The notes below the pieces were generated by a model. It did not search any database. It saw only the letters and a program-made list of their open reading frames with translations, and was not told the DNA's origin. Below, piece after piece: positions 40,886 through 64,000 of a stretch of DNA of 64,000 bases (positions within the stretch are counted from its first letter, which is position 1; the number at the start of each line of letters is the position of its first letter). The position numbers and the translations under genes are program-made. Source of the stretch: Yuukianura sp. NJ FZ-2021 (lineage: Eukaryota); assembly GCA_046563655.1 (NCBI GenBank), contig CM102283.1, positions 3,968,001 to 4,032,000 on the forward strand. The letters are read 5' to 3'.

Positions 40886-42569
40886 CTAACCAGATGACAA
40901 GTCTTTCGTATTGAACAAAATGGCGGGAGCGGGATGGTGGAGGTGAGAGTTGCGCGGGAGAACAGTATTTGAGATACTGGTGGCAGTATTACTGCCAGAG
41001 AAGAGATACTGGCCAGTAGTACTGCCCAGTTGGAGTGGATGTCTCTGGGGAAAGTAATGTTGCGGAGTAGTAGCGTAGAGGAGTGACTGGGCAGAGAGGA
41101 AAGCAGCAGCGTAGAAGGGGTAGACTGGCAGGAGTGCGTTGGCTGCAGCGGCAGCAGCCACCGCCACAGCGTTTCCTTCCCCATTCGGTGAATTTGACTT
41201 GAGTGCTGGAGAGGACGTGGATGCGGAGTGTATGCTCGCAGAGGGACTTGGCAAGTCATCTCGCCGCCGCGGTGGACTCAACGCACCGTGACCGTGGTGA
41301 CCGTGCTTCACAGTCGGACTACCTTCACGCCGCTCTTCTAAATCTGAGAGATCAATGTCATCCTCTTCATCAGTCCTGGGTGAACTGTGACCGTTAGTTG
41401 GCATGTCGTAGTCCGAACCCTGGTCGGATTCCGACATTGGCGAAAGTGTGCTTTGACTCTGTGAAAAAGTGTCTTCTTCTGCTCGATTTCTGTGAAGTTG
41501 TGGACTGGGTGACTTGGTGACGTTGACCTCTCGGTCTTTCGCAATGAGACTCTCGATGGAAAAGTTGTTGGAGTTAGATCCACTCCGTCGCTTCAGTTCT
41601 CCATCTTTCGCTGGATTTTCAGAAAATTCTTTGTGCGCAGTCGCAGTTCCCAGACTCTGTTCGGTGGAACTCCTCCGTTTGGTTTTGATTGACTGTTCAC
41701 GCAGAGTTCGCTTTCCGTCCCGCGAATTGAAATTCAAATTTTTCAAGTCTTTAGGTGGGGCAGAGTGCGGCAAATGGTGGGGCAGGCTATAGATGTCACG
41801 CGATGGAGGAGAAAATCCTGCTGCTGAGGCTGCCAGAAGTCGAACTTCGTTTTCATCTGAGCCGTTGAGGAAGAAAGGAGGGTGGGGCCTTGGTGGGGCT
41901 CCGGTAGGAGCCATAAACGTAGTTATATTTTGAGGAAATTGGTGATGGTGGGGGTGGTGGAGCATGAGATGTGGGTGGGGGTTGAAGTGGAGGTTGTTGA
42001 CTGGCGTTGGTGGGGCTGGTGGAGACAGTGATGTGGCGGCTACTTGTGGTGGGTTTAGCATCCCTGGCGGTGGGTGTGGAGATGACTGAGTGGATGGAAT
42101 TCCTCCAATTCCGAATAGTGGTTGTCCACTGTTGATTTTGTCCAGTATTTCCTTATCAATCGGTTGTAGTTTGAATCTTTTGCGCCTGCGTAGGAATGAT
42201 CCATTTTCGAACATGTTGAGAGCCGAGTAGTGCAGGGCCCAGTAGGCCCCCTTCCCTGGGCGATCTGGACGTCGAGGAACTTTGACAAAACAGTCGTTGA
42301 AGGACAGATTGTGTCGCAGAGAGTTCTGCCACCGCTGCGTGTTTTTTCTAGATGAAAAATAAATAATTTAAAATCTACTTTTCACTTTCTTAAAACTGAT
42401 TTTTAAAAAATATTCACCTGTAGTAAGGGAAGTGGTCCATGATGAATCTGTAAATGTCTGAGAGAGGTAGCATTTTTTCCGGAGAGCTCCAAATGGCCAT
42501 TGCAGTGAGAGAAATGTATGAGTAGGGTGGTTTCTGGTCTCCATAGCTTTCTCTCGATGGCCTCGGCAT
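40886..42569 (-). CDS. FoxB: Forkhead box class B transcription factor (fd96C-like)
   Basis: Exons 42569-42418 and 42347-40886 give [71 protein letters not shown]...[14 protein letters not shown]. Contains an eh1 motif (FSIESLI). Confidence 0.96.
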
Positions 42570-47904: not shown

Positions 47905-49947
47905 CTAAGCCACTGGATCCTTGGTCATTTGTGACTTGTGGGTCGCTGAGCCCTTGAAGCTCAGCATGGCACCGCTGATTCCCACGGCAGCAGCCACCCG
48001 ACGCCCAACTTCCCCTGGAACCAATCTAAACAATTTGTACAATTTAATATTTCCACAATTTTAACATTTTGTTAAATTTTACAAGCGGAGGACGACAAGG
48101 ATGTAGATGTAGCGTGGAATGACAATCAGTTCTTGGTTTGTAAGAATTCCAGCCACAATGTCATTCACTACTGGCTCAGGAGACAGCAGAGGAATCAATC
48201 TAAAAAAAACAACTTTAGTTTCCAAATTTAAAAAAATTATGATTTTTTTGAAAATGGTTTACTTGGATCGAACTCCGTCGAACATTCCAGTGTTGATGTA
48301 GTACGGACACACCAAAGTTGCATGAATCTCCTTCTGACCAAGCTCGCCCTGCAAGCAAAACCAAAAGTTAGCACAATTCACTAAATTAGGAAAAATGCGT
48401 AAACTTTAAGCTGAGTTAACAAAGAATCGGTTAGTACAAAGTAAACTTTTGTCCCTGTTTTGATTACGTTGATTTCATTTCTGAGTGCTTCATCGAATCC
48501 CACTGCTGCAAACTTTGAGGCGCAGTAGTCCACGAGGCGACTGGTTCCACAGAGACCAGCCAGTGACGCCACGGTCACAATGTGACCATGTCCTCTTGAA
48601 AGCATGTCAGGCAGGAAGGCTTTCGTCGTCTGCAACCAAATTACACTTTCAAATGTTAAATTTATAAAATATATCAACATATTTAAATTTTTAGATTGCT
48701 ACCCAGAAGTTGGAGAGTGCGTTGACTTCAAAAGTTTTGAGAATTTGTTCATCCGGAGTTTGGAGCAGTGGCTTCCCAAACACAACGCCAGCATTGTTGA
48801 CCAGAATGTCAACTTTCCCAACGTCTTTCTTGACTTGAGCTGCGGCTGCGTAGATGGCTGCACGAGAGGAAACGTCAACTGTGTAACCATAGCACAGACC
48901 ACCGCCAGACTCAATCTGTTTCACAGTCTCCTCGTTTCCTAAAAACATTCCAAAACAAATATTTTAATTTCCGTTTTACAGAAAATTATTAAATGTTTGA
49001 GCCACTTCGGGAAACCATTTTTCTAAAAATAGAAGATCTCATGGTCAACCATCGGAAGGGATCATTTGTGTTTACAACAGAAACATCCTTCCAAATCTAT
49101 TTTTTGACCTTGGATCCTCTCATTACCTCCCAAAACTTATTTTTGGTCTCCCCAACATCTCAAAATTTTGAAATCGACCAAAATTTCGAATTTCGAAATT
49201 TCGAATTGAATTGAATTACCAATAAATAATGATAGCTTAGCGAAGGTCGTGGATTTAAGTTACGATTGAGACCGTGCGAAAAGACGAAACTTTTCTCGTA
49301 GCGTGCTACCCCTAATTACTACTTGCACTTCACCGTGTAACAGTTTCGTTTTTACATTTTAACAACACAACTAGATACAAAATCAACATAATATTTTTCC
49401 AAATCTCAACATGTTTTTTTTTTTGCAACTTGTTAGTTTGCTGACCCTGTGTGTTGATGTCCCAAGCGACGACGATGGCTCCATGTTTGAGTGCCAATTT
49501 CCTTGCCATGAGTCGTCCGATGCCTGAGCCAGCTCCGGTGATGAGGACGATTTGCCCTCTGACATCCTTGTATCTGAATCTGCGCGGAACGAGGGAAGTG
49601 ACATGTGACACGAAAGTGGTCCAGATCGCAAACAAAAGAGAAGAGAGCAGCTCCAGGATCAAGTCCAGATCAAAAACGAACTTGGATGGGCCTGTCTCCG
49701 TCGGCTGGACTTTTGGTTTTGTTGGTTGAAGTGTCGTCTCTCGTTTGATTTGAGTAGAGACCATAGTAGTTCCTGGACAGGGTGACAGTTGCGGTGTGAG
49801 GAGTTGAGTGCGGAATGCTGTCTCTTCACAACATCTCTCCATCACTTTCCTTTCTCCGATGGCATCTTCCGTCCAATCAATAATTTCCGAGTCCCCTCGC
49901 CCCACAGACTCACTTCCCAAGTCCTCACAATCCCCAAAATACCTCAT
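47905..49947 (-). CDS. SDR16C-family dehydrogenase (epidermal retinol dehydrogenase 2 / 17beta-HSD11/13-like); start could instead be the Met of MVSTQ (~49764)
   Basis: [36 protein letters not shown], catalytic [25 protein letters not shown] at 47907-47905. Confidence 0.9.
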
Positions 49948-50871
49948 CCTAAAAACCAAAACAATCCAAAATCAAAACTTTTCAACTTCAATTTTTCCTA
50001 AAATTGTAAAATGTTACTTTGTGATTACTTTGCAAAGTGGGTTGAGTTTCAGAAACCGGTTTGTTAAGGTGTAAGTTGTTGGTCCACTGAAAGACGAGGG
50101 ATGAGTGGATGGTTTTGGTGAGCAGTGACCACAGGAGGACTTAAGGGTGTTGGGAGGACAGCAACTCCTAAAACAGACACAAAGCATAAGAAAAGTCAAC
50201 GACTTGGGCAGGGTTCAACTTTAAAGTGCCAATCAGTTACCTGTGGCCACAGACATCCTAAACAGCAAAAAATTAATAATTATACGCAATGTTAAATTAC
50301 TCCAAAAACATCGCCGTGATTCAAATTACATGCGAATGATGAGCAAAGAAGTTCAATTTTGTGAAGCAATTTCCTCAGAATTTAAACAATTTGTGACACG
50401 CGGCGTTGGATGACCAATCGAATGTCACCACTACGATGGCAATAGAGTTCATGTCGTGTTTCAATTTCAAGCTGAAGAAACAAAATGAATTGGAGTTCAT
50501 GCTTAGACTTAATTCTAAGTTGCATTCTAAATTCCAATCAAACTGGCACGACCACCATCCATCCTCCACTTGGCAAAATTGGAATAGAAAAAAAGAAAAC
50601 CCGTTTCCACAAAGGAAATCGTTACGCCACAAACTCACCATTTCACGAATCACCAATTACTCAAGACCCACATTCACAAAATCAGCAGTACTAAATGGTG
50701 GAACACTTTTCAGTTCAAATGGACATGCTTCTTAGAATTAAAAGAAATGTGAAAAGAGTAAGAACGTTATAAGAGAGAAGAGATTTACTTAGCATTTGAT
50801 AAATTGTTAGAATTCAAATGAATATTTGATAGATTTTGGATAAAAGAGTCGTCTGTTGATGAGAAGAGTAT

Positions 50872-52249
<1,378 letters not shown>

Positions 52250-53254: not shown

Positions 53255-55189
53255 TTAGTCAGAGACGGCGTCAAATTCACGCAGTAAGTTCCTGGAAGCA
53301 GGAGTCAGAGGATCCGCCTCTTCTTCACGATTAATTCGGTTGAATCTCCCAGTTCTGAAGCGACTACACAAAAAACAAAGTTAGCCACTTTCAAAAAGTT
53401 AGATTGAGCCTCACTTACGCACTACTCCTGGGGTTCGTCTTTGTTGCAGAAATTGGAGTGGAAGCGAAGACTGGAGTGGACGTTTTGGCAGGTCTGATAT
53501 CGTCATCTACAAAAATAGTTGAAAGGGTGAATTTAAACTGAGAAGATTTACGTTGTGACTTACCATCGGAGAAGGAGGAGTCGTTGACCTGGAGTTCGGG
53601 CGGCATGACGACGATTCTGTCTGGAGTGGACGAGCAGCGTTGCCGTTGAGGTGGATTGGGAACAGGTCCCCTTCTGCGTCTTCCGATGACAATGAGAGAG
53701 GCTAGGAAACAGATGATGGCATTCCATACCCTCTTTAACGCTCTCACTTTTGAGTCCAAATATGAAAAGAACATACTCCATTTTCGGCGTTTTACTCGCT
53801 TTATCACAGACGGCAGAGCAAGGAGAGTCGCAACTTCCGGTCGACGCTCAACATCCGATTCAAGCATCAAGCTCACCACTTCACGCAGGGAGTCAGGCAG
53901 AACTAAATACAAAACAAAAATTAACATCAACATCCGAATACTTGTCAATACTTCCAAAAAAGTGCTTACGTTCGTCACATGGAGGAGGGAGAATTCCAGT
54001 TCGTAGTTTGTGCCACAAGTCTCCGCTGTTTGGGAGATCCACGTGACAAGCAATCTCCACAATGACAATTCCGAGAGAAAAGACGTCTGCCTTGGTAGAA
54101 ACTCTGCCGTGGATGACCTCTGGAGCGAGGTACCTCGAGTCTCCTTCTGTGTACTCCGTCGGATGCAATTGCTAAGAACAAACATTTGCTCAATGTCAAC
54201 ATTAACTCATTTTCATAAGAAAAAGAAATTAACTCCTTGCTGTTCTGTGTTATTTACCGTCTCTTCCAGGCTGACAGCTATTCCGAAATCTGCCAGTTTG
54301 TACAACGTAGGAGGTTCTTTGGAGAGGAGAATGTTGTCAGTCTTGATGTCCATGTGGATGAGATGATGTTTGTGGAGATGGTACAAGGCTTGCAACATGT
54401 CAACCAACACATCCCATACCTGGAACAGATCAGTAATTAACAATTGACATTCACAATTTAATTGACATTATACTTACAATGGTTTCGTCCAGTTGATGCC
54501 CCTCCTCGATGTACTGGTTGAGTGACTTAGAACACAACTCCATTTGCAGAAACAGATGACCCTCCTCCTCCCATGCATTCTCAAAAGCTACCAAGTGATT
54601 GTGCGGCGGAATGCGGCAGATTCTTTGCACCTCCAGCAGTTGTCTCGATCTGAACAAGTGAATAAGTCAAAACGGAGTTTAATTTTGCATCACTTGTGCT
54701 TTACCTGTCAAAGTCTCCAGTGTAAGTTCTGCGTGATTTCTTGACGGCGTACTCTCTTCCAGTGGACTTGTTGATGCAGTGGTAAACATCACCAAAGGAC
54801 CCAAACCCAATGCGAGACTGAATTTGGAAAATGTCTTTGAAGATGGGTTCATTGCACTCTCCGCCTTTCAATTTCCCATTCTGCATCATTTGATGGAAGG
54901 AAGAGTCAAAGTCTGCTTTGGGGTCAGTGATCATTCTGGAATGGATGAGACGAGTGCGGGGCTGCGAAGATCCAGATCTGAGAGAGTGGTGAGGTCGGGG
55001 GGCAGGGGGCACATAGCGTAATTGCTTCCTGTCTCGGTCCTAAATTCAAACAAATCAATTAGAAAGCGGAATAGTCTTTAACAATGTTTGAGTAAAGTAG
55101 TTTACCTTCTTTGAGGACAGAATGACTGGTTCTGCAAAGAATTTGGGCATGTACACTCCACTGACGTTGAGCTCCCCATCGTCCGACAT
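53255..55189 (-). CDS. Myt1: Membrane-associated Tyr/Thr CDK1-inhibitory kinase Myt1
   Basis: IGFGSFGDV, YAVKKS, AWEEEGHLFLQMELC, HMDIKTDNI, KLADFG, EGDSRYLAPE, DLPNSGDLWHKLR; hydrophobic membrane segment after the kinase domain; C-terminal RNLL motif. Confidence 0.95.
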
Positions 55190-55725: not shown

Positions 55726-56458
55726 CAGAGGCGCACAAATGTCATTGTTAACAAATGTTGTTAAAACCGGTGAAATATGTATGTAAATATGTAGTAAAAA
55801 TCAGTGAACTATTTGCTCAAATATTTTTTATTTTACGATATATTTAGCTATATGTTAAAAATTACTCCACACATAAGTTATTTACAAAACACCTTGCTTC
55901 GTCACCATAACGAAGAAAAAAAAATTGGCCGGAAATTAAAAAAAACGTTTTCACATAAAAAATTAAAAATTTTGAAAAAAAAATGGAATATTTTTCCGAA
56001 TTGCACAAAAATCGGTTTTTAAAATCGTCTAATTAATCCGTGACTATGCCGTGGCTATGTTGTGGCTATGTTGTGACTATGTTGTGGCAATGTTGTGGCT
56101 ATGTTGTGACTGTTGTGCTTATGTTGTGGCTATGATGAGAGTATGATGAGACTATGTTGTGGCTATGTTGTGGCTATGTTGTGGCAATGTTGTGGCTATG
56201 TTGTGCCTATGTTGTGACTATATTGTGGCTATGTTGTGACTATTTTTGAATATTGCATTAAAAAAAATTATCCCAACACTACATGGACCATTGATAAACG
56301 GTTTGCGCATGACAAATAGTATAAAATTTGCAAAAATGCCACTTTTTGGCAAAATCTTAGAATATTTTGGTAAATATTTTCTATATTTTTTTTGAAAAAA
56401 ATATTTTTTTTAAATATAAAAATATGGAATATGTAGGAAAATATGTTTTGCGCCTCTG
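55726..56458. mobile_element. Non-autonomous hAT-type DNA transposon (MITE), 733 bp, carrying an internal minisatellite
   Basis: TIRs CAGAGGCGCACAA and (reverse complement) CAGAGGCGCAAAA; perfect 8-bp TSD GTTATAGT at 55718-55725 and 56459-56466; very AT-rich interior, no transposase. Confidence 0.88.
56040..56243 (+). repeat. 11-bp minisatellite (ATGTTGTGGCT and variants), ~18 units
   Basis: Tandem atgttgtggct / atgttgtgact / atgttgtggca units. Confidence 0.93.
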
Positions 56459-57187
56459 GTTATAGTACAGTTGAATTATATCAATTCTAGCACGTCCAAT
56501 AAAAACGTTTATAAAAATATTGACTGAATACTATTTTGTATTAATTCCCTGTAGTATAAAAATTTTAGCTGATCATCCTTCCGTATTAATTCACTTTAGT
56601 ATAAAAATTTTGGCTGAATATCATTTCAAAAGTTAGAGTATACAGTTGAAATTTTGGCATTTACATCGAAAAGGTATAATTTGAAATATATTTTGTTTTA
56701 TAAATACTTATGGCAAGTCTGCTAGTCATTCGTACATATCCCTCTGCCTTTGTCGTGTAAAGGAGCACTGCTATATATGAGAGGATGTTCCCTCTGTGCT
56801 ATACTGCGCGTCTGTTTCCCTCTGTACACTTCTGTCCATTTTCGTAGCACCCTCCCGCGCAAGCGTCACTCTTTTCAAATTAATACTATTTCCCGCCCTA
56901 CACTTTCTATTAGCGTCACTTCCCTTACCACCACCAAAATAAAATCAATCACCCGCATTACTTAAATTATGAAATAGGAATGATTGATTACCTAAAACAA
57001 CAATTAATCCAATGAAACAAAAACAATTTACTTTGTTGTAGTACTTTTAGGTTGTAACAGTTAAAACTTAAATAATTCCATTTAACCTACTTAATTAAAT
57101 CATGGATTTCTGGAGATGAAGTTAAAATTAAGAAATTGGATGTTCTTACCTTAGGAAATGATAATTGAATAGGGAAGAATTTAGAAG

Positions 57188-60100
57188 TTACCCACGTCCT
57201 CTGCCCCACTGATTGAGAAGTGGCCCATTCTTCGGTGCTTGGTTGCGACCTTGACCTGTTCCTACCACGACTGGCCCCACCGCTGGTGAGAGTGCCCCAC
57301 TTGGTGGCTGTTTGTTGGGGAAGTTGAGTTGTCTTTCCTTCTCCATCTCCCTCCAGAAGCAAATGAGTCTGGACAAGAGGGCAATGTCTTGTCCATTCCC
57401 GTTCCTCCGAGAAGTCCTGAGAGCCAGGACGGAAACTACTTTGCGCATGAGCTGCAAGTAGGATCTGTCCAGGTAGATCTGGACGTTGATTCCACCCATG
57501 GCCCCACTGGGACTGGGATTGGCAGCCAAGTTGATCTGGTCCCAGCAGTTGCACTTTGTCATGCTCTCACAAGAACGAGAAGTAGAACTGAAGTAAGTAT
57601 TTGGAGGACAGATGAATGACTTTGGACCAGCGGATGGTTGACAGGAGTAGTAGAATCTGGGATCACGATAGCCAAACACTCCTTCTCCTGCGCACACTCC
57701 TTCCCAAGGCAGGGCGTAGTTCCACTCGATTCCAGTTCCAGCACTTCTCTCTCTTCTGAACTCGGCTCCATTCCAAGTATACTTTTCATTCTTGTCTGTG
57801 CCCAGAAGATGATGAACGTAAGAGGCCACGCAGAATCCATGGTAGATGCTAAAGTAAAGATCATCCGGACATCGGTACAGGATCTCCTCGTACTTGTTCC
57901 CGTCGTCACTCTCGTCACTGTTCCTCTCCGGTTTGTCACTGATTTCATTGGAGTTGTCGTCTTCTCCACTCTCAAGTCCCAAAGGATTTTTAGGAATGCA
58001 GGCAAAGTAGAATCGGTAGTCTGGAGTGGGTTTGAATCCGGCAGAGGTGCATTGTGGCACTTCGAATTCAATTGCCTCCATGTCCACTTTGGTCCCAAAG
58101 ACAATTGCTGGATTGGTCACAACTTGGGGTGGGCCGACTGTCAGTTTAGAGAAGGAGGGTTTAGGAGAGGTGAGTAAATCTGGTCTGGACAGTTTGACAT
58201 TTGCGAGTCTGGCGAGATCCACTCTCATGTTGTAGCTGGTTCCAGTGAGAATGTACTCATGTTGGAATCCCGGAATGCAGGAGCCAGTACGTGGACTGAA
58301 GTAGAATCCAGAGTGACAAAGGAAGAGTTGTGTGATGAGTCCATTGGGTTGTTTGCTGGTGACGTAGTAATATCGAATGTCGTTGAGTGGATACTTTCCT
58401 TCCTTGTCTGAAACTGGAACGTGGAAAGGAACAGAACCAATCTGGACAGCAACTCCAGAGCGCAGATCCAACTTCCCTCGGATTGTCCAGTGTGTTCGGA
58501 CACCTTCCCAAGATGGAAAATACTACAAGAGAGGAACGATTTTAGTCAATTAGCAATTGGAAAAGTGTTAAATGTAAAACATATACCTGGTGACCGGAGA
58601 AGAATGATGATTTGGTGCATGCTTGGTAGATTGAGTTGTAGAAGAGGCCAGTGGGACATTGGAATAACTTGCGATCGAATGAATCCCTGGACCCTGCCAA
58701 GTGGTTGCACACAAAGTAGAATCTGTAGTCGGGATAAGCAAAGTGTCCAGGAGTGACACAGTCTGGAAGATTGAACATTGGCGATCCCTTCCCAACCACT
58801 TTGCCTGGACTCTTTTGCAGCGGATACTCTTGACGTTTTCTTCCAATTTCATAGCCAGACACACACTGACCCTTACTCGGAACAAAGTAGTAGCCATAAG
58901 GACACCGACTCAGTAAACCTAAATTCAAACAAAAAAGAAAACCACAATAAAATTAAACATGAACATAGTTATAAAAAATATGACAAAAATGATTTGTTAC
59001 CAGGAGCGGAAGAAGAGCATGAAATGTAGAATCGATCGTCCAATCCGAAGGGAAGAAGCCCTTGAGCAGAGCAATGGTTTGAAATGCCCGGGAACTGAGA
59101 GAGCGGGAAGTTGCAAGGAAGTCCCGGTTGGACAATGGATGACGCTGGTCCTGGACCCAGCCGAATGCCACTGTCGTCTCTGAGAATGGAGGACCCAGAA
59201 GAATGGACACAAGCACTGGCGTAGTGATTGAAGATGTAGTTGTGTCCACATGACTTCACTTGCGAAGTGTAGCCACCATTTCCATTTCCAGCACAGGAGA
59301 TAAACGTAGAAATATCGTCCGTAGCAAAGGCCCCTGGTCGCGAACACTTCCAGTTCGATTGATCTGTCACGCGACTCCCGAATGTCAAAATGGCACCAGA
59401 AAACGAAGAGTCTCGAGTACTAAAGAACTGGTCCATGAACGACTCACTGCTGAAATCCACAGAAGAAGACTGGACAACGGAGGATGTCTGGACACTGGAA
59501 TCGAAGGAAAACGTTTCTAGGAATGTCGTCATCGTTGTGAATACTGTCACGGTTTCAATTGTTTCTAAAAAGCTGCTCGAACTGGTTTCACTCACAGATG
59601 ATTCTGATTTGGAAGCATTAATTTCAGTGTTCTGCGATTGCGAGGAGTGGGAATTTGACATGGCTGAATTGGACTGTGACCTCTGCGAGGAAGCAGCAGC
59701 AGCTTGCGACGCCGCTGAACTTTGAGATAAAGAATTTGATCCTGTGAAACTGGCTGAATTGACTGCGTTGGAGTTGCTTAAGACTGAGCTGGACTGGGCA
59801 GCTTGAGCTTGAATTGCAGCAGTGCTAGAAAATGACCCTGACAGTGACTTCGCAACGGTGGCTTCAATCTGGGAGTTTTGCGTTGCTGATTGACTGGATT
59901 GAGACATCACTGAGCTTTGTCCTGCAGCGAGAGCTTGACTACTAACTGCTGAGGTAGCTACATGCGACGTAGCTGATGCGACCAACGAATTTCCCGCCGA
60001 TGAACGTTGATCACTCTTCAGAGCTTGGACTGTTGCACTTTGACTTTGAGCAGTCATTCCGGATTGTCCATGCATTGTACCAGAACTCACAGTTTTTCCC

Positions 60101-63100
60101 ATGGAATTCATCGCTCTTGATTGCATTTGAGCATTTTGGACTGCGGCACTACTTTGAGAAGCCATATTCTGAGCAGTCATTGCAGATTGTCCATGCATTG
60201 CTCCAGAACTCACAGTTTTTCCCATTGAATGTCCTACCATGGAATTCATCGCTGCTGATTGCATTTGAGCATTTTGGAGAGCTGCACCACTTTGAGCAGT
60301 CATTGCAGATTGTCCATGCATTGCACCAGAACTCACAGTTTTTCCCATTGAATGTCCTACCACGGAATTCATCGCTCCTGATTGCATTTGAGCATTTTGG
60401 ACAGCTGCACCACTTTGAGCAGCCATATTCTGAGCAGTCATTGCAGATTGTCCATGCATTGCTCCAGAAGTCACAGTTTGTCCCATTGCAGCTCCTGCCA
60501 TGGAATTCATCCCTCTTGATTGCATTTGAGCATTTTGGACAGCTGCACCACTTTGAGCAGCCATATTCTGAGCAGTCATTGCAGATTGTCCATGCATTGC
60601 TCCAGAACTCACAGTTTGTCCCATTGCAGCTCCTGCCATGGAATTCATCCCTCTTGATTGCATTTGAGCATTTTGGACAGCTGCACCACTTTGAGCAGCT
60701 ATATTCTGAGCAGTCATTGCAGATTGTCCATGCATTGCACCAGAACTCACAGTTTGTCCCATTGAAGCTCCCGCCATGGAATTCATTGCTCTTGATTGCA
60801 TTTGAGCATTTTGGACAGCCGCACCACTTTGAGCAGCCATATTCTGAGCAGTCATTGCAGATTGTCCATGCATTGCACCAGAACTCACAGTTTGTCCCAT
60901 CGAAGCTCCCGCCATGGAATTCATCCCTCTTGATTGCATTTGAGCATTTTGGACAGCTGCACCACTTTGAGCAGTCATTCCGGATTGTCCATGCATTGCT
61001 CCAGAACTCACAGTTTGTCCCATTGAAGCTCCAGCCATGGAATTCATTGCTCTTGATTGCAGTTGAGCATTTTGGACTGCGGCACCACTTTGAGCAGCCA
61101 TATTCTGAGCAGTCATTGCAGATTGTCCATGCATTGCACCAGAACTCACAGTTTGTCCCATTGAAGCTCCCGCCATGGAATTCATTGCTCTTGATTGCAT
61201 TTGAGCATTTTGGACAGATGCACCACTTTGAGCAGCCATATTCTGAGCAGTCATTGCAGATTGTCCATGCATTGCACCAGAACTCACAGTTTTTCCCATT
61301 GAAGCTCCCGCCATGGAATTCATTGCTCTTGATTGCATTTGAGCATTTTGGACAGATGCACCACTTTGAGCAGCCATATTCTGAGCAGTCATTGCAGATT
61401 GTCCATGCATTGCTCCAGAAGTCACAGTTTGTCCCATTGCAGCTCCTGCCATGGAATTCATCGCTCTTGATTGCATTTGAGCATTTTGGACAGCTGCACC
61501 ACTTTGAGCAGCCATATTCTGAGCAGTCATTGCAGATTGTCCATGCATTGCTCCAGAAGTCACAGTTTGTCCCATTGCAGCTCCTGCCATGGAATTCATC
61601 CCTCTTGATTGCATTTGAGCATTTTGGACAGCTGCACCACTTTGAGCAGCCATATTCTGAGCAGTCATTGCAGATTGTCCATGCATTGCTCCAGAACTCA
61701 CAGTTTGTCCCATTGCAGCTCCTGCCATGGAATTCATCCCTCTTGATTGCATTTGAGCATTTTGGACAGCTGCACCACTTTGAGCAGCTATATTCTGAGC
61801 AGTCATTGCAGATTGTCTATGCATTGCACCAGAACTCACAGTTTTTCCCATTGAAGCTCCCGCCATGGAATTCATTGCTTTTGATTGCATCTGAGCATTT
61901 TGGACTGCGGCACCACTTTGAGCAGTCATTGCAGATTGTCCATGCATTGCACCAGAACTCACAGTTTGTCCCATCGAAGCTCCCGCCATGGAATTCATTG
62001 CTTTTGATTGCATCTGAGCATTTTGGACTGCGGCACCACTTTGAGCAGTCATTGCAGATTGTCCATGCATTGCACCAGAACTCACAGTTTGTCCCATTGA
62101 AGCTCCCGCCATGGAATTCATTGCTTTTGATTGCATTTGAGCATTTTGGACTGCGGCACCACTTTGAGCAGCCATATTCTGAGCAGTCATTGCAGATTGT
62201 CCATGCATTGCTCCAGAACTCACAGTTTGTCCCATTGAAGCTCCCGCCATGGAATTCATCCCTCTTGATTGCATTTGAGCATTTTGGACAGCTGCACCAC
62301 TTTGAGCAGCCATATTCTGAGCAGTCATTGCAGATTGTCCATGCATTGCTCCAGAACTCACAGTTTTTCCCATTGAAGCTCCCGCCATGGAATTCATTGC
62401 TCTTGATTGCATTTGAGCATTTTGGACAGATGCACCACTTTGAGCAGCCATATTCTGAGCAGTCATTGCAGATTGTCCATGCATTGCACCAGAACTCACA
62501 GTTTTTCCCATTGAAGCTCCTGCCATGGAATTCATCGCTCTTGATTGCATTTGAGCATTTTGGATAGCTGCACCACTTTGAGCAGCCATATTCTGAGCAG
62601 TCATTGCAGATTGTCCATGCATTGCTCCAGAACTCACAGTTTGTCCCATTGAAGCTCCAGCCATGGAATTCATTGCTCTTGATTGCATTTTAGCATTTTG
62701 GACAGATGCACCACTTTGAGCAGCCATATTCTGAGCAGTCATTGCAGATTGTCCATGCATTGCTCCAGAACTCACAGTTTGTCCCATTGCAGCTCCTGCC
62801 ATGGAATTCATCCCTCTTGATTGCATTTGAGCATTTTGGACAGCTGCACCACTTTGAGCAGCCATATTCTGAGCAGTCATTGCAGATTGTCCATGCATTG
62901 CTCCAGAAGTCACAGTTTGTCCCATTGCAGCTCCTGCCATGGAATTCATCCCTCTTGATTGCATTTGAGCATTTTGGACTGCGGCACCACTTTGAGAAGC
63001 CATATTCTGAGCAGTCATTGCAGATTGTCCATGCATTGCTCCAGAACTCACAGTTTGTCCCATTGAAGCTCCTGCCATGGAATTCATCCCTCTTGATTGC

Positions 63101-64000
63101 ATTTGAGCATTTTGGACAGATGCACCACCTTGAGCAGTCATTGCAGATTGTCCATGCATTGCACCAGAACTCACAGTTTGTCCCATGGAAGCTCCCGCCA
63201 TGGAATTCATTGCTTTTGATTGCATCTGAGCATTTTGGACTGCGGCACCACTTTGAGCAGTCATTGCAGATTGTCCATGCATTGCTCCAGAACTCACAGT
63301 TTGTCCCATCGAAGCTCCCGCCATGGAATTCATCCCTCTTGATTGCATTTGAGCATTTTGGACAGCTGCACCACTTTGAGAAGCCATATTATGAGCAGTA
63401 ATTCCGGATTGTCCATGCATTGCTCCAGAACTCACAGTTTGTCCCATTGCAGCTCCTGCCATGGAATTCATCCCTCTTGATTGCATTTGAGCATTTTGGA
63501 CAGCTGCACCACTTTGAGAAGCCATATTATGAGCAGTAATTCCGGATTGTCCATGCATTGCTCCAGAACTCACAGTTTGTCCCATGGAAGCTCCCGCCAT
63601 GGAATTCATTGCCTTTGATTGCATTTGAGCATTTTGGACTGCGGCACCACTTTGAGCAGTCATTGCAGATTGTCCATGCATTGCACCAGAACTCACAGTT
63701 TTTCCCATTGAAGCTCCCGCCATGGAATTCATTGCCTTTGATTGCATTTGAGCATTTTGGACTGCGGCACTACTTTGAGCAGTCATTGCAGATTGTCCAT
63801 GCATTGCTCCAGAACTCACAGTTTTTCCCATTGAAGCTCCCGCAATGGAATTCATTGCTTTTGATTGCATTTGAGCATTTTGTACTGCGGCACCACTTTG
63901 AGCAGCCATATTCTGAGCAGTCATTGCAGATTGTCCATGCATTGCTCCAGAACTCACAGTTTGTCCCATTGAAGCTCCAGCCATGGAATTCATTGCTCCT
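57188..64000 (-). CDS. Giant repetitive protein (partial; N-terminus beyond window): Met/Ala/Gln/Ser/Gly repeats, Ser-rich linker, six ChtBD2/peritrophin-A-like modules
   Basis: Exons >=64000-59001, 58918-58587 and 58522-57188 join in frame through GT-AG introns. Modules of the form C-x3-G..D.RFY..C..CP.G.YF...C, e.g. CVTPGHFAYPDYRFYFVC...FQCPTGLFYNSIYQAC and CAGEGVFGYRDPRFYYSC...FICPPNTYFSSTSRSC. Confidence 0.88.
60047..64000 (-). repeat. Coding tandem repeat of 138-bp (46 aa) and 123-bp (41 aa) units, ~30 copies in the window
   Basis: Consensus MNSMAGASMGQTVSSGAMHGQSAMTAQ[NMAAQ]SGAAVQNAQMQSRA; length variants are multiples of 3 and the ORF stays open. Confidence 0.97.

Follow-up and report, generated by a model that had tools for sequence, protein, structure and literature searches.

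The 64,000 nucleotides (nt) of Yuukianura sp. NJ FZ-2021 DNA analysed here (contig CM102283.1, positions 3,968,001 to 4,032,000; hereafter the window, to which all coordinates refer) carry on the minus strand a real animal gene that joins a methionine (Met)-rich repeat array to six modules of the chitin-binding CBM14 type. It contains an open frame of 1676 amino acids (aa) at 58969..63999, still open at the window end. The gene model consists of three exons. Exon A (59001..63999), whose 5' end lies beyond the window, encodes the array, a tract rich in serine (Ser), alanine (Ala) and glutamine (Gln), an acidic segment, module 1 and the first half of module 2, and its 3' border at 59001 is the donor G|GTAACA. 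Intron 1 (58919..59000; 82 nt, GT..AG, phase 1) splits module 2, the second half of which is encoded together with module 3 by exon B (58587..58918). After intron 2 (58523..58586; 64 nt, GT..AG, phase 0), exon C (57188..58522) encodes modules 4, 5 and 6, a conserved tail and the TAA stop at 57188..57190. The spliced frame is open up to this stop and gives a product of at least 2221 aa.

The original prediction had assigned the repeats to one large exon. An exon on the scale of at least 5 kb is indeed present and holds them; however, it ends at the donor at 59001 and not at a stop codon, and the modules are distributed over three exons. The same prediction joined the array and the ChtBD2-like, CBM14-type exons into one gene, and this is borne out by the repeat exon continuing in frame, without a stop, into the first CBM14 module, by DNA contigs bridging the junction and by the alignment of a relative. 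This relative, the continuous 750-aa protein P0009, aligns (tblastn) first with the end of exon A, then with exon B and then with exon C, which agrees with the splice model; our guess is that it was derived from a transcript contig.

The array (59977..63999, minus strand) comprises 30 units rich in Met, Ala, Gln, Ser and glycine (Gly). Tandem Repeats Finder reports a 138-nt period with 27.6 copies and 91% matches over 60293..63998, and splitting the translation at its MNS anchor gives 21 units of 46 aa, eight of 41 aa and a last, degenerate one, the shorter type being the 46-aa unit minus the five residues NMAAQ. The 1341-aa repeat region contains 21.7% Ala, 15.7% Ser, 14.3% Met, 14.1% Gln, 12.2% Gly and 4.9% threonine (Thr), with few Lys or Arg, a single Asp and no Cys, Glu, Phe, Pro, Trp or Tyr. 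In unit 23 we counted 11 Ala, 7 Met, 7 Gln, 7 Ser, 5 Gly and one MHG motif, exactly the composition that had been predicted for the 46-aa unit, and the predicted number of about 30 near-identical units of 46 or 41 aa also holds. As had been proposed too, the repeats are homogenised: the units are on average 95% identical in DNA, units 16-18 differ from units 24-26 by 2, 0 and 1 mismatches, units 8 and 17 differ by one, and unit 11 matches unit 20, so that duplication blocks of a higher order, about 8-10 units long, can be recognised. The units at the array edges, next to unique sequence, are the most divergent. Such block duplications and divergent edge units are the pattern expected from unequal crossing-over. 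The two stretches predicted to follow the array are both present: the Ser/Ala/Gln tract SQSSAASQAAAASSQRSQSNS (59632..59976, minus strand), which is non-repetitive and has 115 aa (35% Ser, 20% Ala, 13% Gln), and an acidic segment rich in Ser, Thr and Phe (59359..59631, minus strand; 91 aa, isoelectric point (pI) 4.05). The latter is weakly alignable in relatives, only its F191 and D204 being invariant (four sequences, alignment A2).

A stop-free tandem repeat opens several frames by construction, and in this array two other frames are open as well, for hundreds of codons; because of this, openness alone does not prove coding. The array might accordingly be no part of the protein at all, but a satellite open by chance, an assembly artefact or a decaying pseudo-exon. 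The ratio of non-synonymous to synonymous substitution rates (dN/dS) argues against this reading, since among the 21 units of 46 aa it is 0.39 in the proposed frame, and in the proposed frame only, while the other two frames free of stops give 4.7 and 1.8. Purifying selection acts on the repeat frame. Moreover, the array frame enters module 1 without a stop, and relatives with other DNA repeats encode a like amino-acid composition in frame with their own CBM14 modules.

The sequencing data bear on the same question. The runs that match the stretch are all DNA and none is RNA. Three of the data sets (X1 to X3) come from one sample, perhaps the source of the window, and X4 from a second study; since the first three may be the window's own source, only X4 counts as independent. 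An X3 contig of 3795 nt covers 57000..60143, X4 contigs cover 57283..58404 and 58375..60076, and together these contigs bridge the CBM14 exons into the last, degenerate array unit. Short-read contigs collapse within the array, so that its length is that of the source assembly. The comparison with other DNA assemblies gave 200 variants; among the 40 that were listed, 36 lie in exons (25 synonymous and 11 non-synonymous, with 24 at codon position 3). Eight of the 11 insertions or deletions listed are located in intron 1 or past the stop, and the three coding ones are a 3-nt deletion and a pair of 2 and 1 nt in a single contig. Taking both sides together, we regard it as very improbable that the array is not part of the protein.

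Downstream of the array, six modules were delimited by their cysteine (Cys) pattern, all on the minus strand. The Pfam scan covered 443 aa at the end of exon A, exons B and C, and an array portion of 666 aa, the cut-off of CBM_14 (PF01607, peritrophin-A) being 22.1 bits. Module 1 (59209..59346) has four Cys and a CBM14-like appearance, with 16.6 bits, under the cut-off. The first half of module 2 (59002..59073) has two Cys; the module resumes after intron 1, its second half (58863..58916) lying in exon B. Exon B gives two CBM_14 stretches in Pfam, the first half of module 2 not having been searched alone. Module 3 (58617..58760), also in exon B, reaches 29.5 bits and module 6 (57560..57706) 27.5 bits, both over the cut-off. 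Module 4 (58268..58432) is degenerate, with two Cys and 16.0 bits, under the cut-off, and module 5 (57821..58060), which contains an acidic insert, has no Pfam match. Thus the six predicted ChtBD2-like modules are recovered by Cys pattern, and two of the six (modules 3 and 6) pass the PF01607 profile, while modules 1 and 4 remain below it and module 5 is unmatched.

The CBM14 consensus has six Cys that form three disulfides. Here five modules carry four Cys each and the degenerate module 4 carries two, a reduced-cysteine variant of the CBM14 domain. One extra, non-conserved Cys of the window protein is found in the linker between modules 1 and 2. Exon C has 13 Cys columns, each of them unchanged in all 13 sequences of the alignment. 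Three of these invariant Cys belong to the conserved tail (57191..57559, minus strand), the last 123 aa of the protein, which contains the motifs CNCW..., IHLDRAYL and LICFWREMEK and has neither a Pfam family nor a PDB sequence match. The total of Cys in exon C is odd (13), so that one free tail Cys may form an intermolecular disulfide. About 60 residues before the C-terminal end there is a conserved RR. Many family members have Gly, alone or followed by basic residues, at their C-terminus: the ends of the relatives in alignment A1 are ...NLG, ...PHLG, ...IIHG, ...RMG, ...GKK and ...LGRK, and the window protein ends in GRGRG. These ends resemble a C-terminal amidation signal.

An AlphaFold model of exon C, built with 13 aligned sequences, had a mean predicted local distance difference test score (pLDDT) of 50.7, with 65-89 in the modules and less than 50 in the tail. 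When this model was compared with known structures, all seven of the top VIA rows were CBM14-type chains, and Foldseek gave likewise such matches; the Z values are moderate. The chitin-binding domain of Blo t 12 matched residues 27-86, which correspond to module 4 (Z 6.1, root-mean-square deviation 2.5, 59 aligned), Der p 23 matched with Z 5.5, and Aplysia EHEP matched twice (Z 5.4 and 5.2) at about residues 154-327, that is, modules 5-6. Two Avr4 entries and CHIT1 are also within the top seven, and tachycitin follows at rank 9 (Z 3.9). Helical VIA matches on residues 340-400 (Z 2-4) were discarded as meaningless, the AlphaFold tail being under pLDDT 50. By Pfam and by predicted fold, then, the C-terminal part can be described as a multi-module CBM14 region.

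The gene belongs to a family with few known members. A word-based search found eight proteins of 410-454 aa that are 40-44% identical to exon C over 94-96% of its length. With phmmer against 1.84 billion representatives, eight proteins were found at E <= 0.001 and just three at E <= 1e-30, and outside this group there were only weak matches, at E 1e-6 or worse; the small number of close matches indicates that the family is narrow. Ten proteins were looked up, and the sole source name given for relatives in any listing is 'hypothetical protein'. Among 4765 candidates no longer or fused relative (778-2220 aa) was found at E <= 0.001, which is weak evidence. In the open-access literature we found no report on this family or on any arthropod protein that combines CBM14 modules with a Met-rich repeat; a drought proteome of Folsomia lists peritrophins in its supplements, which might include a relative (PMC12295829).

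The array itself has no match either, and the earlier statement that the repeat was not recognised stands: the word-based search scored 7998 candidates with none at E <= 0.01, the ESM Atlas gave a best score of 0.80 with unrelated clusters, and the PDB sequence search returned no match at E <= 1. A Pfam match of the array to PGM_PMM_II (21.3 bits, cut-off 29.3) was taken as noise.

A scan of metagenomes yielded four further loci (L001 to L004). The frame break inside module 2 is also present in L001, L003 and L004, and the break before exon C in all four, so that the layout of the gene is conserved. L003 and L004, which are nearly identical in sequence, share with the window the order of the two genes that follow (window 55162 down to 50872), and therefore they carry the orthologue. 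These two genes, at 53258-55162 and 50872-52210 (both minus strand), are colinear with L003 3591-10134 and with L004. One of them encodes a protein kinase, its first exon matching Pkinase at 26.7 bits (Pfam cut-off 31.7), and the second has well-conserved exons. Microsynteny is thus kept across species, although their identity in exon C is just 41%.

Upstream of the modules, L001 encodes tandem 9-aa units AAAMSQQSx and L003 encodes the sequence AMAASRQAQSAVAGSQMAAS... Ala, Ser, Gln, Met and Gly together make up 78% of the upstream sequence in the window, 85% in L001 and 88% in L003, Pro and Cys are absent in all three, and Met accounts for 11% in L001 and 8% in L003. As judged from the encoded sequences, composition is kept between relatives, whereas unit length and sequence are not. 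A composition that is kept while the unit changes points to the overall physical or chemical behaviour of the array as the trait under selection.

As to what these properties could be, the array has a net charge of +39, a pI of about 12 and a grand average of hydropathy (GRAVY) of -0.24. A single-sequence AlphaFold fold of four units gave a pLDDT of 43.9 and, at low confidence, helices some 25 residues long that alternate with coil. A coiled coil or amphipathic helix was considered and rejected, because the maximal helical moment was 0.27, against 0.29 +/- 0.06 in 2000 shuffles, 59.5% of which reach the observed maximum. The array is most likely a disordered, weakly cationic polymer with some helical tendency.

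One rival reading, raised by the original prediction, is that the protein forms an extracorporeal fibre, glue or cement, such as a silk-like thread, an egg case or a spermatophore stalk, with load-bearing repeats and a CBM14 end that anchors it to cuticle. The very large exon of homogenised repeats rich in Ala, Ser, Gln and Gly is like those of silk-like structural proteins, which are said to arise independently in many lineages, according to the accessible part of the source (PMC4944945). As in silks, repeat period and sequence have turned over from one relative to the next with the composition preserved, and the conserved, Cys-bearing tail could serve dimerisation. On the other hand, Pfam finds no silk-type terminal domain in the tail or the other parts scanned, and the shuffling result and the low pLDDT given above show no sign of a regular structure. 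Furthermore, spider ASG1, which has ChtBD2 domains and a repeat region and was once called a glue, has been reassigned to the peritrophic-matrix family (PMC4753498), and it is a cautionary precedent for the glue reading. A fibre or glue is therefore in our opinion unlikely.

Another explanation, which takes up the redox and Cu(I) ideas of the original prediction, places the function in the chemistry of the side chains: the array, rich in Met and His, would be chemically active and would absorb oxidants (Met to Met-sulfoxide) or soft metals, Cu(I) among them, on a chitin lining, or would be a substrate for Met cross-links. The visible array contains 192 Met, 34 His, 28 MxxM motifs and 30 MH pairs, and MxxM is like the 'Mets' motifs of copper transporters. 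Met content is kept in relatives, at the levels given above for L001 and L003. There is also an analogy with the pearl oyster, where the insoluble scaffold proteins that associate with shell chitin commonly have Met-rich regions and Met-based cross-linking has been proposed (PMC7591529). However, the pearl-oyster proteins are not homologues, and L001 and L003, whose units differ, share neither the MHG motif nor the MxxM spacing; this argues for composition over a binding motif. We consider a chemically active array about as improbable as the fibre. A more specific version is slightly less probable still: the protein would be a lineage-restricted, chitin-anchored polymer whose Met/His array is the working part, making a redox- or soft-metal-responsive matrix through Met oxidation, Cu(I)-type binding by MxxM and MH, or Met cross-links. 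If this were true, it might form, for example, a lining of gut or cuticle that would trap metals or oxidants and be shed at the moult, and it would add a new type to the biomaterials of arthropods, one that has converged on the Met-rich chitin scaffolds found in mollusc shells.

The reading that we prefer, and hold to be fairly probable, is a matrix protein that is secreted, anchored multivalently to chitin and equipped with a long, disordered domain rich in Met. The presence of a C-terminal multi-module CBM14 region, by Pfam and by fold, makes a chitin-anchored extracellular structural protein the natural reading, and in this respect the original proposal of a chitin-anchored matrix protein is upheld; its interpretation as a whole is partly supported. 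In the proposed mechanism, the six small, disulfide-stabilised modules of the C-terminal part (about 675 aa) would hold several chitin chains or fibrils, giving multivalent anchoring or cross-linking, and one Cys of the conserved tail that follows them, with its three invariant Cys, may link molecules to each other. The N-terminal part, of at least 1341 aa, would occupy the space between chitin fibres as a long, flexible and hydrated polymer and lend cohesion or elasticity there, and the acidic segment might pair with the cationic repeats of neighbouring molecules. Of this picture, the gene structure, the coding frame, its purifying selection, the CBM14 identity and the conserved layout and repeat composition are shown, whereas secretion, chitin binding, disorder and the role as a material are inferred.

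Several observations must be weighed against this reading. Exon A runs past the window end, and the N-terminus and the signal-peptide region, on which secretion would depend, lie beyond the window. The stretch was found in five sequencing runs, with no RNA run among them. P0009 starts inside the acidic segment and carries no repeats, either because its assembly may have collapsed or because it may represent a relative or isoform that lacks the array. Repeats upstream of the modules were seen at only three of the four loci, where they cover 50-129 residues, and L003 and L004 are near-duplicates. Four of the six modules do not reach the Pfam cut-off on their own, the modules differ from the six-Cys CBM14 motif in carrying four Cys or, in module 4, two, and chitin binding by the modules is predicted from their sequence. 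Finally, a low pLDDT from a single-sequence fold is no proof of disorder.

As to where such a matrix protein would be deployed, the gut peritrophic matrix is our tentative first choice, and the cuticle or another epidermal lining comes only a little behind it. Some other site is rather unlikely, and an egg envelope, spermatophore or another secreted product is a still more doubtful location.

The known proteins closest in design are the peritrophic-matrix proteins and insect intestinal mucins, including ASG1, which like the window protein combine several CBM14-type modules with a long, repetitive region of low complexity. Multi-CBM14 proteins are the standard arthropod way to tie protein to chitin, and their low-complexity parts are usually mucins rich in Thr and Pro. 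In ASG1 the repeats lie in a large exon with the ChtBD2 domains, as here, according to the accessible part of the source (PMC4753498). Peritrophic-matrix proteins and mucins have a Thr/Ser/Pro linker, whereas the present array is free of Pro, has the low Thr content given above and is rich in Met, Ala, Gln, Ser and Gly; in place of a mucin-type linker, only the 91-aa acidic segment is rich in Ser and Thr. They also differ in that the modules here have four Cys and not six, and are followed by a conserved tail that is not CBM14. Cuticular proteins analogous to peritrophins (CPAP1 and CPAP3/obstructor) likewise share CBM14-type modules, being proteins of chitinous linings. CPAP3 proteins have exactly three six-Cys domains at set distances and lack a long repeat; the present protein, with six modules that are four-Cys or degenerate and otherwise spaced and with an array of at least 1341 aa, differs from CPAP3. 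No CPAP-like protein was present among the matches of the relatives (word-based search and phmmer).

Resilin follows a similar design logic, in which disordered repeats are anchored to chitin. It has a Rebers-Riddiford chitin-binding domain (Chitin_bind_4) flanked by elastic repeats rich in Gly, Pro and Tyr that are cross-linked via Tyr. The present array lacks both Tyr and Pro, and Chitin_bind_4 had no Pfam match in the parts scanned. Spidroins and silk-like proteins are alike in the huge exon, the homogenised repeats, the bias towards Ala, Ser, Gln and Gly and the fast turnover of units; they differ in that the present protein has 14% Met and CBM14 modules, which spidroins lack. Spidroins carry characteristic N- and C-terminal domains. 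The C-terminal parts of the present protein match no Pfam family but CBM_14, hence no spidroin-type C-terminal domain is seen there, and the N-terminus is beyond the window. The pearl-oyster proteins of shell and ligament scaffolds (NU-5, LMP and others) are likewise Met-rich, of low complexity and tied to a chitin scaffold, and one of them has a Met-rich region with Gln repeats. However, they belong to another phylum and a mineralised tissue, have no sequence relationship to the present protein and are not described with CBM14 arrays, as far as the accessible part of the source goes (PMC7591529).

Elsewhere in the window, the final part of a Forkhead domain (PF00250, 59.9 bits) is encoded by a large exon at 40886-42367 (minus strand), which continues into an extended low-complexity stretch enriched in His, Pro and Ser, and an exon at 49330-49971 (minus strand) contains the beginning of a short-chain dehydrogenase domain (adh_short, 24.4 bits, slightly under the cut-off of 26.6). 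Between genes, downstream of the gene described here, there are short tandem repeats at 56040-56243 and 56510-56625, consisting of 18.7 copies of the 11-nt unit GTGGCTATGTT and 2.6 copies of a 45-nt unit.

The joining of low-complexity repeats to chitin-binding CBM14 modules is a known and familiar design, so that the gene is no surprise in kind. What is new is the Met-rich, Pro-free array, the four-Cys modules and the conserved tail. The modules and the tail merit a structural look, and the gene is a defined candidate for studying Met-rich disordered polymers on a chitin scaffold, a question hitherto posed for the shell proteins of molluscs (PMC7591529).

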